From IMG/VR virus record IMGVR_UViG_3300028025_000089: DNA of 64,000 nt; one strand, written 5' to 3'. Origin of the DNA: a virus. Lineage: Duplodnaviria; Caudoviricetes. Position 1 is the first letter of the stretch; every line of letters starts with the position of its first letter. Both the position numbers and the translations under genes were made by a program. Below the pieces are notes generated by a model. The model did not search any database and was not told where the DNA came from. It saw only the letters and a list, made by a program, of their open reading frames with translations. Of this stretch, positions 27,596 through 40,831 are shown one piece after another.

Positions 27596-27604
27596 GTTCT
27601 TTGA
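27596..27604 (+). promoter_or_regulatory. boxA-like antitermination site
   Basis: GTTCTTTGA 5 nt before tRNA-Ser. Confidence 0.65.
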
Positions 27605-27609
27605 AAAAC

Positions 27610-27694
27610 AGAGGAGTGTCAGAGCGGTCGAATGAGGCGGTCTTGAAAACCGTTGATCCTAACAGATCCGGGGGTTCGAATCCCTCCTCCTCTG
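27610..27694 (+). tRNA. trnS: tRNA-Ser(UGA)
   Basis: AGAGGAG/CTCCTCT acceptor, loop CTTGAAA, long variable arm, TTCGAAT. Confidence 0.93.
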
Positions 27695-27709
27695 CAAAAT
27701 GTAAAATAT

Positions 27710-27783
27710 GGTCCCGTAGCTCAGCTGGATAGAGCAACTGCCTTCTAAGCAGTAGGTCAATGGTTCGAATCCATTCGGGATCA
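27710..27783 (+). tRNA. trnR: tRNA-Arg(UCU)
   Basis: Canonical cloverleaf, loop CTTCTAA. Confidence 0.95.
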
Positions 27784-27946
27784 CAACTTTAAAAATATGG
27801 AAGAAATTTTTTATCAGTTACACGAAGAGTTCATTAACTCTGAAGATTTTAATCAATACGTAAAAGAAATGTTAGAATACGAACATACATTAATTTTACA
27901 ATCTGAAAATAATAACTTATAGTTTAATAAATTATAAGATATTATA

Positions 27947-28018
27947 AGTCGTGTAGCTCAGATGGCTAGAGCAATCCAAATTATGGATGTGTCATTGGTT
28001 CGAATCCTTTTACGACTT
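27947..28018 (+). pseudogene. Degenerate tRNA (5-nt anticodon loop)
   Basis: Good acceptor and D arm; ATCCA-AATTA-TGGAT; mismatched T-stem. Confidence 0.7.
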
Positions 28019-28053
28019 ATAAAAATTAAAAAGTGTTGGTGACAACACTTTTT

Positions 28054-28563
28054 TTATTTATATACAGTTAATACGCAATAAAAAATCTGATCATTATAGG
28101 TAACTCCATTTATGATAATCTTATTTGAAGTTTTACTACCAACACAAAGTCCGTCATATTTTGGATTTAACATTAATTCGTTATGTTTAGGAGAATTTTT
28201 CCATAACTCTAACACTTTATTTGCTCTTTCTTCATCCGTCTTCAAATCTATAAAACTACAAAGGTTTTCACCAATATATGTGTAGTTGTATTGATACAAA
28301 TATGTTATTCTTTCAATGAATGTTTCAAATGTTGTTGGAAAAGAAGATGTGATTCTTTGAGAATGATCCAAAGGTAATGTTGATGTCTCTATCATATAGT
28401 TTAACATTTGATCGTTGGCCAATTTAGCTTTAGACTCATACACTAATTCAGGAATACCATTTTGTTTTCGATATAAATTAATTTTTTTAATAATAAGTTC
28501 ATTTACCTTTTGACCAAAAGAAAACGAGAATATAAATAAGAATGTTATTAAAAGTATCTTCAT
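28054..28563 (-). CDS. Secreted CAP/SCP-domain protein
   Basis: Signal peptide; INLYRKQNGIPEL..GENL..WKNSPKHNELML. Confidence 0.85.
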   Translation of the reverse strand: MKILLITFLFIFSFSFGQKVNELIIKKINLYRKQNGIPELVYESKAKLANDQMLNYMIETSTLPLDHSQRITSSFPTTFETFIERITYLYQYNYTYIGENLCSFIDLKTDEERANKVLELWKNSPKHNELMLNPKYDGLCVGSKTSNKIIINGVTYNDQIFYCVLTVYK

Positions 28564-28659
28564 AGTTTTTATATTATATTCAATAATATATATAAATAAA
28601 ATAAGATCAAAAAATTATATTAAGTTTTTTTAATTAAATAATTTTTGTATCTTTGTATT

Positions 28660-29157
28660 ATGAAAAACAAACTCCCATACGAAGCCACGTCAAAAGCAAT
28701 CCAAGGATATTCAGAATCAGTGATTGCAAAATCAGAAAATAATGATTGTGTTGTAAGAGCGTTTGCTTCGGCATTTGATATTTCTTACGATAAAGCCCAC
28801 AAATACGTTGCCGAAAAATTTGGTAGAAAACCAAAAAAAGGAACTTACGGAACTGTAAGTAAACTTGTAAGAATGGCTGACGATAGAACGACTGTAAACT
28901 ACAAAAAAGTTTATCCTGTTGGTGTTAGAAAAAGTTCTACATTGATTAATTCTTTATCTTACAATGTGACGATCAAAGGAGAAACCAAACTGAGAAAAAT
29001 GACCGTTGGGACTTTTATTAAACAAAACCCAAAAGGAACATTCTTTGTTTTAGTTAGACAACACGCATTTACAATCAAAGATGGTGTTGTTATTGGAAAC
29101 TATGAGGATGCGGTTAAGACCAAAAAAATTATGAGATGTGCATTCGAAATCAAATAA
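28660..29157 (+). CDS. Hypothetical protein, possible papain-like (Cys..His) fold
   Basis: NNDCVVRAFA..HAFTIKDG. Confidence 0.7.
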   Translation: MKNKLPYEATSKAIQGYSESVIAKSENNDCVVRAFASAFDISYDKAHKYVAEKFGRKPKKGTYGTVSKLVRMADDRTTVNYKKVYPVGVRKSSTLINSLSYNVTIKGETKLRKMTVGTFIKQNPKGTFFVLVRQHAFTIKDGVVIGNYEDAVKTKKIMRCAFEIK

Positions 29158-29167
29158 ACTATATAAT

Positions 29168-29551
29168 ATGAAAAAACTAATTTTACTATTTGGATTACTG
29201 ATCCATCAGGTAACTTTTTCTCAACCTTTAATGAGAACTTATTCCACCATAGATTATGAAGGAATCGCAAAAAACAATTTTAGTAAGTTTACTTTAAAAC
29301 CAAAGAACGATTATGTTTGTAGATTGGAATATAATAAGTTCCAAATATCGGTAAGTTCAAAACTTAAAAGAATACCTGCAATTGATACATTCTCAGATTT
29401 AACAATTAATGACATAATTTTTGCCGGATCCTACGATATACGAGCAAGATTTTATATTTCACCAAATGTTAAAGTTTTTCAAAGAGCGTTTATAACAGGA
29501 TTGAGCGATAGTCAAATATTTCACACAACAGGAATTATAATAAATTTTTAA
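29168..29551 (+). CDS. Secreted protein, possible small outer-membrane beta-barrel
   Basis: Signal peptide; alternating beta pattern; terminal Phe. Confidence 0.6.
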   Translation: MKKLILLFGLLIHQVTFSQPLMRTYSTIDYEGIAKNNFSKFTLKPKNDYVCRLEYNKFQISVSSKLKRIPAIDTFSDLTINDIIFAGSYDIRARFYISPNVKVFQRAFITGLSDSQIFHTTGIIINF

Positions 29552-29581
29552 AAAAACACTTGTCAATTAAAATAAAACATT

Positions 29582-38644: not shown

Positions 38645-38655
38645 AATTAAGTTTT

Positions 38656-38775
38656 TATATTTGTAAAACAATTGAGGGAAACCTTAAAAAAAAAGTAAAA
38701 GAAAAATTTGACTAATTAAAAAATTCTTCTTAACTTTGTAAAACAAATCAGGAAACGTCCTGAATCGTTCTTTGA
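38656..38775 (+). promoter_or_regulatory. Tandem host-type promoters plus boxA
   Basis: TATATTTG 38656; TTTG..TAACTTTG 38731; GTTCTTTGA 38767. Confidence 0.7.
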
Positions 38776-38789
38776 AAAAATAGATTATC

Positions 38790-39670
38790 CAATCAGGAAA
38801 AGTTTTGTCAGATTAATTGACGTGTAATTGAAACGAATGTTTCATCTTGGAATGATAAAGATATTGGGCAGTATATGGTCCATTAAAATAAACCATGAAA
38901 GTGGGATAAAGTGAATTATTTGTGTTAGATAGTTTGCGGCTTCTTCGGGAGCTCGAGTATACAAGCGGGATACCGTTTAACCTTTAGTATCGAGGGCAAC
39001 GCTGTAGAGAAAGTGGTTAGATGATTTGGCGATGTGGGTCGTCAAATTGAGGTGGGAACACCAATAGGAATAACTCGTAGGAATTTTGCAAAACAAAGTG
39101 TTCCAACACTTTCATTGCGAGTTCCAATATTAGAGGATACTTAAAACCGAAAGGTATGATAACAAACGGGTGGTGCCGACATTATCCTTGATGAACTCCT
39201 ACCAAGGGGTTAATCTCGAAGTAGTCTTAAAGTATGGAAATGGGGACATTTCAGAGAGTAGTTGAGTATTTCGTTGTTCAAAAGATAACGAAGCCCGTGA
39301 CGGACCACTACTTTCACAATCCACGACACAAAACTTATGGAAGTTGTTATTTTCCAAAAAATAATTATTACATTAAGGAAAAGTGTCCGTCAGGTTTGAA
39401 TGAAAGGTGACTACATAGTAATGAGCAGTTCATTGCACACAAAGATCCCAAGTCGATGTGTAATTTTTCGAAAAACCTTTAATCCCGCAAGGACGAACTG
39501 GGGAGGCATCCTCGGAAAGAGTTAAAGTAGAATGAGAGTAGTTCAGACCTCAAGGAGTGGTATACCTAAAAGACCGTCACTGAGAAATACTTCTCAAAAG
39601 GAAGTGGATAGGAGTAGAAACAATAATGACTCTAAAGGTTCTCACAAATAGGTGTAATCTCAACCTTTTA
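38790..39670 (+). ncRNA. Large structured ncRNA, GOLLD-like (boundaries approximate)
   Basis: About 880 nt without an ORF of 60 aa or more, visibly GC-richer than flanks, many hairpins including UUCG/GNRA loops; family assignment is from recall only. Confidence 0.6.
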
Positions 39671-39707
39671 TTTCTTTTATAGAATGGAGCTAAAACCGGT
39701 AAAAATA

Positions 39708-40268
39708 TTAGGGACGATGTGAATCGATCCCTTTTTTTGTTTTTACTGATTGGTAAATAAGATCAATAAAGTTTAACATTTCATCATGTGTCATTGAATT
39801 TTTTGCATGGTTACATGCGGTGCTTATAAATTGTATGTTTCCTTTCACATACCCTAAATTACTATTGATCCTATCTAAAGAGGCGGTATTGATGTTATTA
39901 CCATTTTCATTTGGTTGAACTAATTTAACACCACTATAAACACAAATGCCACTTTGTATTTCCCATTGATCTAAAAGATCTTGTAAATCAATGTTATACT
40001 CATGATGTCTTTTTTTTAGTCTTCTGAAATGCTCTCTAAGTCCTGTAAATTGATCTCTACGGTTGTTTCTTTGTGGTTCTAAGTATTTAATATTTTCATT
40101 AACATATTGTTTTAAGTGGTTGTGATTATCAATACCACAACATTTTCTTGAGCAATAGTTTTTTCTACCAATTTTTTCGTTTCTAACTATTTCAGACTTA
40201 TCTTTCAAAAACTCAATACCACAAGATGGGTTAGAACATATTGTTAATTCTTTTTTTCTTTGTCTCAT
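39708..40268 (-). CDS. HNH (His-Me finger) endonuclease, likely homing
   Basis: CxxC..C N-terminus; QSGICVYSG..ASLDRINSNLGYVKGNIQFI..CNHAKN. Confidence 0.85.
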   Translation of the reverse strand: MRQRKKELTICSNPSCGIEFLKDKSEIVRNEKIGRKNYCSRKCCGIDNHNHLKQYVNENIKYLEPQRNNRRDQFTGLREHFRRLKKRHHEYNIDLQDLLDQWEIQSGICVYSGVKLVQPNENGNNINTASLDRINSNLGYVKGNIQFISTACNHAKNSMTHDEMLNFIDLIYQSVKTKKGIDSHRP

Positions 40269-40291
40269 ATTCTTTTATTTATAAATAGTCC

Positions 40292-40320
40292 GTATCCACA
40301 AAAAAAACCAAGTATCCACA
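40292..40320. repeat. Direct repeat GTATCCACA x2, 20-bp period
   Basis: 40292-40300 and 40312-40320, each followed by an A-run. Confidence 0.7.
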
Positions 40321-40332
40321 AAAAAATAAACA

Positions 40333-40363
40333 AAAAAAATCCCACCATAATTAAATAGTGGGA
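40333..40363 (-). terminator. tmRNA terminator
   Basis: ATCCCAC/GTGGGAT with a T-run on the minus strand. Confidence 0.75.
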
Positions 40364-40368
40364 TCAAT

Positions 40369-40786
40369 TGGTGGACCTAGAGGGCTCCGACTCCCTCGTC
40401 CGGCTCGTCTTGTCTAAAAGACAACTACATGTTTAGATCAAGGTTTTTCATACCTTCCGAAATATTTGGTTCCTATTTTTACATTGTTACCAAAAACTGT
40501 GTCGAGTTCACTTTGTTACGGTAGCCCTCTGAACGAGACCGTTGTTTCCTTTTAGAGTGAAAACCAACTCATCTACGACTTCTGTTGCTAGGTTATCTGT
40601 CTGACCGACCCCCCGTTTCCGTATCTAATTAAGCTACAGTAACTTCAGAACCTCTTACTAATCCAAGAGTTTCCATTTTGTTTAGCACATTGCCAGTTGT
40701 GTTTTGAATCAGTTTTTAACGAGATTAATTCAGTCCCGACATGCTTCTTTTATTCAACCAACGCCCGTCAAATCCAATATAGGCCC
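40369..40786 (-). ncRNA. ssrA: tmRNA
   Basis: 5' GGGCCTA..GGATTTGAC, 3' TAGGTCC-ACCA with G3.U70; tag ORF 40694-40629. Confidence 0.92.
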
Positions 40787-40807
40787 ATATATCTTAAATG
40801 ACTATTT

Positions 40808-40831
40808 TCAAAGAACTATAATACAAATATA
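40808..40831 (-). promoter_or_regulatory. Promoter plus boxA for tmRNA
   Basis: Minus strand TATATTTG (40831-40824) then GTTCTTTGA (40816-40808). Confidence 0.7.

Follow-up and report, generated by a model that had tools for sequence, protein, structure and literature searches.

A motif matching the Bacteroidota ribosomal RNA boxA in the leaders of tRNA, GOLLD and tmRNA units of a phage genome

Introduction

The boxA element of bacterial ribosomal RNA (rrn) operons recruits NusB and NusE (S10) and the rrn antitermination complex; in E. coli, C4 and U6 are critical positions of the core. The element lies in the leader and in the spacer of these operons, with boxB before it and boxC after it, and the boxA/Nus clients already known are the rRNA operons themselves, the nut sites of lambdoid phages, suhB and CRISPR arrays. 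Here we describe a 9-mer, GTTCTTTGA, in a stretch of 64,000 nucleotides (nt) of viral DNA (IMG/VR record IMGVR_UViG_3300028025_000089; Duplodnaviria, Caudoviricetes), referred to below as the window, in which the motif stands at the heads of three tRNA blocks, of the large non-coding RNA GOLLD and of the transfer-messenger RNA (tmRNA) gene. The 9-mer is identical to the commonest rrn boxA of Bacteroidota, and the phage probably uses it as a boxA for these stable RNAs.

Several described systems bear on this arrangement. Motifs with the same core, at the same position in rrn operons, are NusB-binding boxA elements in E. coli and B. subtilis (PMC3177189, PMC13753749). A boxA-like RNA with the UCUUUGAAA core (AUGAUCUUUGAAA) binds B. 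subtilis NusB by NMR, and the B. subtilis rrn operons have a small hairpin before boxA (PMC13753749); the boxA of M. xanthus, GCTCTTTGAAA, has the same UCUUUGAAA core (bioRxiv 10.64898/2026.07.09.737519). Our literature search found no experimental work on the boxA or the rrn leader layout of Bacteroidota. The window shares with the rrn leader the order of promoter, small hairpin and boxA, on the sense strand and before a long structured untranslated RNA, and the boxA of the rrn spacer is mirrored by a phage copy placed after a tRNA. It differs in its clients, which are tRNAs, tmRNA and GOLLD, in having no identified boxC, and in that the function is one we propose for the phage by comparison.

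Outside rRNA, a boxA is present in the suhB 5′ untranslated region (PMC5725501) and in the leaders of CRISPR arrays, where it protects the long non-coding array from Rho (Stringer 2020, as cited in bioRxiv 10.64898/2026.07.09.737519). As far as that citation describes it, the CRISPR case concerns a long untranslated array of small RNAs, with a logic like that of a phage tRNA array. Both are cellular genes, whereas here the signal is carried by a virus that has no Nus factor, and the cargo includes an ornate RNA of about 0.9 kb. The lambdoid nut site (boxA, boxB and N) and the put RNA of phage HK022 are likewise instances of a phage gaining resistance to termination by way of the host Nus machinery or an RNA signal. 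In lambda nut, however, boxA comes before boxB, N is required and the targets are mRNA operons, whereas the window has the rrn order, no known N-like protein and stable-RNA targets.

GOLLD RNA (RF02032) forms a 14-mer nanocage, as seen by cryo-EM (PMC12286853). The window RNA is a full match to the family and is located in a phage beside tRNA genes, as described for its members. The GOLLD papers that we examined mention no boxA, Nus factor or antitermination, and the Rfam model comprises the 3′ domain only, with the leader outside it. Our search of the literature on GOLLD and boxA, which covered papers other than the original GOLLD report (PMC4140389), found no link between the two, and in the literature searched a boxA at phage tRNA or tmRNA units is not described.

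Occurrence and position of the motif

The features discussed here are collected in Table 1. The window contains six exact copies of GTTCTTTGA, as against a mean of 1.16 in 100 dinucleotide-preserving shuffles, none of which reaches six. The original prediction, made from the sequence alone, had listed five positions and reckoned with about one match by chance; the five positions are exact on recount and the chance figure agrees with the shuffles, but the list was incomplete, as a sixth exact copy is present on the plus strand at 2673. With the RNA genes placed by ARAGORN (tRNAs) and Rfam (GOLLD and tmRNA), five of the six copies fall in leaders or spacers of the tRNA, GOLLD and tmRNA units, always on the strand of the RNA gene; the copy at 2673 lies within an open reading frame (ORF) and is probably a chance occurrence outside the system. 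Taking the shuffle rate as background, the sense-strand non-coding leaders and spacers, about 1.9 kb in all, would contain about 0.017 copies by chance, and five copies give a Poisson p of about 1e-11 by our own estimate. Variants of the motif with one mismatch are not enriched in the window (40 seen, 34.9 expected).

Four of the sites had also been placed just downstream of a promoter, and this agrees with the four best promoter-like matches in the region (27552-27580, 31947-31975 and 38633-38661 on the plus strand and 40854-40826 on the minus strand, each matching at 10–11 of 12 positions), which precede the motifs at 27596, 32041, 38767 and 40816. The recurrent promoter is cTTGaCAAATTAAAA...TATATTTGTA, with a −7 box of the form TAnnTTTG. 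The distance from this box to the motif is 7–63 nt at the four sites, and that from the motif to the mature 5′ end of the RNA varies from 5 to about 110 nt. So near a position to the −7 box is what would be seen if the motif belonged, at the DNA level, to strong promoters of stable RNAs, for instance as a discriminator-like region or as the target of a regulator of initiation. We consider this very unlikely: the spacing is not fixed, copies occur directly past tRNA 3′ ends and far from promoters (at 29898 and in three loci of the survey described below), and the motif keeps strictly to the sense strand and is found again in the host 16S-23S spacer. The variable spacing and the copies past tRNAs argue for an RNA signal rather than a promoter element.

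The host and its rRNA boxA

Among the gene products of the window are a portal, a major capsid protein and a large terminase of T4 type, together with a protein bearing SprB repeats along with a CHU_C type IX secretion domain; the GC content of the window is 31.6%, and the closest cultured relative of its capsid protein is from a Flavobacterium phage (41% identity). The combination of a −33 TTG and a −7 TAnnTTTG is the promoter consensus of Bacteroidota. On the grounds of the T4-type genes, the CHU_C/SprB protein, the promoter type and the capsid relationship, we conclude that the phage is T4-like and that its host probably belongs to the Bacteroidota, at phylum level only; given such a host, the promoters are read as being of the −33/−7 type and not as classical sigma-70 promoters. 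A megablast search of the window against phages gave no match, and two related genomes, G001 and G002 (the latter 272.6 kb and 93% complete), were used for comparison. A BLAST search of the phage tmRNA against 401 Bacteroidia genomes returned two weak partial matches only, and the host assignment stays at the phylum.

To characterise the boxA of this phylum, public genomes were scanned for the Bacteroidota 16S 5′ end, yielding 120 rrn loci, of which 101 have enough leader. A host boxA of a different sequence had been named in advance as evidence against the original prediction; instead, with the host known to phylum, GTTCTTTGA proves to be the commonest boxA of Bacteroidota 16S leaders, the best match being exact in 40 of the 101 and one base off in a further 38. 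It is usually located 85–200 nt 5′ of the 16S marker (itself about 15 nt inside the gene), past an A-rich run, and the exact sequence recurs in the 16S-23S spacer of many host operons. One-base variants are found in Flavobacteriaceae and Saprospiraceae (GTTCATTGA), part of the Chitinophagaceae (GATCTTTGA) and Sphingobacteriaceae (GTTCTTTAA). The layout is shared as well. A TAnnTTTG box is present 12–62 nt 5′ of the host boxA in 31 of 75 leaders, compared with 3 of 75 in a downstream control, and a hairpin lies just 5′ of boxA in 53% of host leaders (e.g. TATCAGgaaaCTGATAaacGTTCTTTGA) compared with 21% of shuffles. Because the host leaders share both sequence and layout, the phage motif appears to be the rrn boxA of the host phylum, and the GOLLD leader described below appears to copy the whole arrangement of promoter, hairpin and boxA.

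The factors that would act on such a signal are present in candidate hosts: NusB is encoded in all five, and Rho in four of the five, candidate-host Bacteroidota genomes that carry this type of boxA, and no NusB, S10 or NusG is encoded among the proteins of G001 and G002. We note that the NusB domains of the genomes G003–G007 lie in open frames of 321–466 codons; E. coli NusB has about 140 residues.

The GOLLD leader

The large non-coding RNA that had been predicted behind the motif at 38767 is identified by Rfam as GOLLD, with a match to RF02032 of 313.1 bits (gathering threshold 150) that covers the full model. Conservation was followed in 25 related viral contigs with 66–93% identity in a neighbouring protein, and boxA is kept down to 66% protein identity as the flanking sequences drift. 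At GOLLD it is present in every relative contig that includes the region, even where GOLLD itself has about 70% identity. In an alignment of 29 GOLLD leaders, 23 of them distinct, the columns that do not vary are those of boxA and of the −7 box with its TAAAAC. MAFFT misregistered the hairpin in this alignment, so column-wise pair counts were not used and every leader was folded singly. All 23 distinct leaders form a hairpin of 5–6 bp located 2–4 nt 5′ of boxA; at least six different stem sequences are represented, with compensatory substitutions, and the mean folding energy is −6.2 kcal/mol, as against −0.5 in shuffles.

A hairpin so close to boxA, conserved and covarying and with loops that are GNRA-like or rich in A, and another hairpin before the boxA at 32041, recall a nut-like site, at which hairpin and boxA together would recruit a phage antiterminator of the lambda N kind along with host Nus factors. 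Lambdoid phages do use boxA with an antiterminator of their own. We nevertheless regard a nut-like site as unlikely here, for several reasons. First, the order of hairpin and then boxA is that of rrn leaders and the reverse of lambda nut. Secondly, host rrn leaders have the same hairpin-boxA layout with no phage involved. Thirdly, a conserved hairpin is absent from the sites at tRNA-Ser, at 29898 and at tmRNA. No candidate for such an antiterminator was identified, although a search for N-like proteins was not made.

Evidence from RNA is available for the GOLLD and tmRNA region, where contigs from four freshwater metatranscriptomes, from four studies, were mapped to 38600-40900. GOLLD is covered at high depth (38885-39660) and tmRNA at lower depth (40371-40755). 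The ORF between them (39678-40370) has no contig coverage, and as these are contigs and not reads, zero coverage over this ORF, the promoter and the tmRNA leader is not evidence of absence. The GOLLD leader with its boxA (38677-38830) is covered in one run at about 1% of the depth of the GOLLD body, which is in keeping with removal of the leader after its transcription. This places boxA in the transcript, on the sense strand, past a predicted promoter and before an untranslated RNA. The contigs of all four runs end at 38885-38887, about 110 nt past boxA, a weak hint that this is the mature GOLLD 5′ end.

The low depth of the leader and the common contig ends would also suit a signal for RNA processing or stability, that is, a binding site for a nuclease or chaperone common to the precursors of rRNA and of the phage stable RNAs, the more so as the motif is always in a leader that the mature RNA lacks. 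Such a role is improbable in our judgement, as the rrn operons of E. coli and B. subtilis have, at this position and with this core, a boxA that binds NusB (PMC3177189, PMC13753749) and the spacing of 5 to about 110 nt to mature 5′ ends is unlike that of a fixed cleavage signal.

Two further features of the GOLLD unit may be recorded. The two promoters before GOLLD are of the same type and 75 nt apart, resembling the tandem P1/P2 promoters of rRNA operons. One RNA contig is missing 38779-38862, and the same 84-nt stretch is variable among relatives.

The tRNA and tmRNA units

The motif heading tRNA unit A is kept in G001 and G002 although the flanks differ. A hairpin that might sequester boxA at 27596 was considered and dropped, being absent from G002 where the flanks differ. 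In unit B the motif heads the main run of 15 tRNAs (29924-31915) and is preceded by a tRNA, not by a promoter; its layout, with a tRNA 3′ end, an A-run, boxA and CATATTGG, recurs in five other loci. The counterpart of the motif at 32041, in unit C, is kept in six relatives.

The approximately 300 nt between the unit C motif and the next tRNA (32050-32357) are unannotated, and their first 60 nt or so are highly conserved in relatives. In relatives a tRNA-Phe is located about 110 nt past the counterpart of this motif; the window has a weak tRNA-like match at 32181-32255 (16.7 bits), possibly a decayed tRNA. The arrays also include some unusual tRNAs, namely a tRNA-Asn with anticodon ATT (27946-28019), a tRNA at 32358-32433 for which a four-base anticodon loop (ggaa) is called, and a tRNA-Ile(TAT) at 32605-32678. 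An ORF of an RNase H-like family (PF04308) lies within the tRNA array at 31304-31759.

In the tmRNA unit, eight relatives have GTTATTTGA at the corresponding position, past the −7 box and ahead of the tmRNA itself, so that the pattern GTT(C/A)TTTGA is kept in position across the relatives. Four of five host tmRNA genes are without the boxA motif, which argues that it was not simply inherited with the tmRNA gene. The phage tmRNA is missed by ARAGORN and detected by Rfam; that of the window scores 78.5 bits (about 104 in most relatives), has a longer leader and begins with GGGCC, not GGGGG. The fifth host gene, in a metagenome-assembled genome of a freshwater member of the Flavobacteriales (G007), has TATCTTTGtactaGTTCTTT directly at the tmRNA 5′ end, which is the most phage-like among the host tmRNA genes, and is a possible trace of the lineage that gave the phage its tmRNA gene.

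Table 1. Coordinates of promoters, motif copies, hairpins and stable RNAs in the window.
Feature	Position	Strand	Details
Sixth copy of GTTCTTTGA	2673..2681	+	within ORF 2602-3036
Promoter, tRNA unit A	27552..27582	+	−33 TTGACA 27552-27557, 17 nt, TATATT(TA) as −7/−10; match 11/12
boxA-1 GTTCTTTGA, then AAAA	27596..27604	+	13 nt past −7-like box; 5 nt before tRNA-Ser (27610)
tRNA-Ser, tRNA-Arg, tRNA-Asn(att)	27610..28053	+	terminator-like hairpin 28028-28053 at end
Promoter, tRNA unit B	29560..29589	+	TTGTCA, 16 nt, TATATTTG
boxA-2 GTTCTTTGA, then CATATTGG	29898..29906	+	between tRNA-Thr (29815-29887) and tRNA-Gln (29924)
Promoter, tRNA unit C	31947..31977	+	TTGGCA, 17 nt, TATATTTG
boxB-like hairpin GGGGGTGAG...CTCACCCCC	31991..32024	+	83-nt segment −21.4 kcal/mol, z = −3.0; kept in relatives
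boxA-3 GTTCTTTGA, A-run before	32041..32049	+	heads second tRNA block 32358-33716
Tandem promoters before GOLLD	38633..38738	+	P1 TTGACA 38633 and TATATTTG 38656-38663; P2 TTGACT 38708 and TAACTTTG 38731-38738
boxB-like hairpin TCAGGAaacgTCCTGA	38748..38763	+	ends 3 nt before boxA-4
boxA-4 GTTCTTTGA, then AAAAAA	38767..38775	+	5′ edge of GOLLD precursor
GOLLD RNA	38776..39666	+	Rfam 3′ domain 39254-39666; 5′ half variable
tmRNA and terminator hairpin	40338..40786	-	RF00023 40786-40369; hairpin 40365-40338
boxA-5 GTTCTTTGA, then AAAT	40808..40816	-	7 nt past −7 box; 21 nt before tmRNA
tmRNA promoter	40824..40854	-	TTGTCA 40854-40849, 17 nt, TATATTTG 40831-40824

The motif in other GOLLD-bearing phages

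A scan of IMG/VR with a core pattern from the GOLLD 3′ domain gave at least 119 loci, and the 104 with at least 950 nt upstream were analysed; the counts in this paragraph are among the matches listed. An exact copy is found at the GOLLD 5′ edge, on the GOLLD strand, in 60 of the 104 loci and a one-base variant in 16; after clustering at 85% identity the figures are 31 and 11 of 54 clusters. The motif lies 725–873 nt 5′ of the GOLLD pattern (835 in the window), and its density at the GOLLD 5′ edge is 1.92 per kb compared with 0.022 per kb elsewhere in the same loci, an 87-fold difference. The exact copies in these loci (about 1 Mb) comprise the 60 just mentioned, 16 lying no more than 200 nt 5′ of a tRNA on the same strand, five before tmRNA, 11 that are otherwise intergenic and 15 in ORFs. 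Thus 81 of the 92 copies outside ORFs are just 5′ of GOLLD, a tRNA or tmRNA, and the reversed motif, used as a control pattern, gives two intergenic copies and nine in ORFs. The sequence 5′ of boxA is of several unrelated kinds, and some copies are directly past a tRNA 3′ end.

More distant phages show comparable arrangements. In the unrelated 634-kb phage LR745206.1 just two copies fall outside long ORFs: the first, preceded by a −7 box and a hairpin, stands 21 nt 5′ of a tRNA, and the second, preceded by a hairpin, stands 56 nt 5′ of GOLLD. Among cultured phages the feature is also carried by Flavobacterium phage vB_FspM_immuto, whose host is Flavobacterium sp. LMO8. Phages of Proteobacteria have tRNA arrays with a boxA of the GCTCTTTGA type at the head and GOLLD at the end; Roseobacter phage DSS3P8, which infects Ruegeria pomeroyi DSS-3, has GCTCTTTGACAATTTGG 104 nt before the first tRNA, and Mesorhizobium phage Cp1R7A-A1 has a hairpin and GCTCTTTGA 62 nt before tRNA-Trp. 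We considered the motif as a structural component intrinsic to GOLLD and rejected this, as the word is missing within 1.5 kb 5′ of the 3′ domain in the GOLLDs of phages of Caulobacter, Vibrio (PG07), Mycobacterium and Roseobacter.

Several boxA-like sites are not accompanied by a recognised RNA gene. Two of the surveyed loci have a second hairpin-boxA unit (aaatcgggaacgtctgatttaGTTCTTTGAagaaattgg) about 300 nt 5′ of the GOLLD boxA, with no recognised RNA gene behind it. Vibrio phage 70E35.6 has a boxA of the E. coli type, GCTCTTTAACAATTT, in non-coding sequence that has no tRNA close by (MW824424.1:667-675), and Mesorhizobium phage Cp1R7A-A1 has TATAAT, a hairpin and GTTCTTTGAAAA (MT188704.1:42471); these two sites may head unannotated RNAs. 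In the ROOL alignment (supplement of PMC12286853) several RNAs from gut metagenomes start with UGUUCUUUGAUAUG, and ROOL, another class of ornate phage RNA, may also start with boxA.

Discussion

We consider it likely that GTTCTTTGA is an RNA-level boxA, placed in the 5′ leaders of the stable-RNA units of the phage (three tRNA blocks, GOLLD and tmRNA), where it would load the host rrn antitermination complex, and that phages of this kind probably use the rrn transcription machinery of the host for stable RNAs of their own. In the mechanism we propose, host RNA polymerase would start at a host-type promoter (−33 TTG, −7 TAnnTTTG), and the nascent leader would expose the boxA RNA (GUUCUUUGAAAA), with a boxB-like hairpin just before it at GOLLD and at one tRNA block. 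Host NusB-S10 would then bind boxA and, with NusG, NusA and other factors, form an antitermination polymerase of the rrn type that would resist Rho on long untranslated transcripts; the complex would probably also speed and chaperone co-transcriptional folding and processing, and the leader would be trimmed off afterwards.

Several observations weigh against this reading. The most general is that the motif is not in overall excess in the whole genome of G002, with eight exact copies compared with ten of the reversed control, five of the eight lying within open frames of 259–941 codons. An equal frequency elsewhere had been named as a way in which the original prediction might fail, and the total in G002 is indeed not raised, yet only three of its copies are intergenic, and these stand before the GOLLD unit, a tRNA block and tRNA-Ser. 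The signal is therefore one of position and not of frequency, and the case rests wholly on position. The G002 count would accord with chance occurrence, or with passive carry-over of a functionless sequence along with captured host RNA genes, as would the host tmRNA gene of G007, with GTTCTTT directly at its 5′ end. We find this explanation barely credible in view of the positional enrichment (about 1e-11 in the window; 87-fold at the GOLLD edge and 92 against two non-ORF copies among the listed loci), the conservation of the motif as its flanks diverge and, for carry-over, the four of five host tmRNA genes that are without it.

Other points against a boxA that loads the host complex concern particular units or phages. 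The site at 29898 is downstream of a terminator-like hairpin and a tRNA, and so cannot act on that hairpin. With the tmRNA (0.4 kb) and the unit of three tRNAs, both of them short, it is not obvious why protection from Rho should be needed. The cultured GOLLD phages of Caulobacter, Vibrio (PG07) and Mycobacterium have no boxA beside GOLLD. Within single contigs, GOLLD is found with GTTCTTTAA and tRNA heads with GTTCTTTGA, and we have accordingly rejected a strict tracking of the host boxA variant. The host is known to phylum only, and some Bacteroidota families use the variants GTTCATTGA, GATCTTTGA and GTTCTTTAA. Lastly, Nus binding, Rho resistance and a benefit to folding are what we infer from support that is comparative and not experimental.

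Taking the survey together with these points, we tentatively suggest, as an idea with rather less than even chances, that an rrn boxA of the host type at the head of stable-RNA operons is a general phage strategy across phyla (GTTCTTTGA in Bacteroidota, GCTCTTTGA in Alphaproteobacteria), and that the rrn complex may be needed for giant ornate RNAs, namely GOLLD and perhaps ROOL, some aligned sequences of which begin with UGUUCUUUGA. Very abundant phage leaders bearing boxA might also draw NusB-S10 away from host rRNA synthesis.

What is novel is a standard boxA in a new set of clients: a virus would apply the unmodified rRNA signal of its host to its own tRNA arrays, tmRNA and GOLLD. The arrangement seems to be widespread. 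The survey of host leaders also provides comparative evidence on the identity of the Bacteroidota boxA and the layout of the rrn leader. The function and biogenesis of GOLLD are not understood, and its leader of promoter, hairpin and boxA offers a testable link to the rRNA transcription and chaperone machinery, as well as a simple sequence marker for the true GOLLD 5′ boundary, which lies outside the Rfam model. For phage biology more broadly, the arrangement suggests that Rho may be a real barrier to the expression of phage tRNA arrays.

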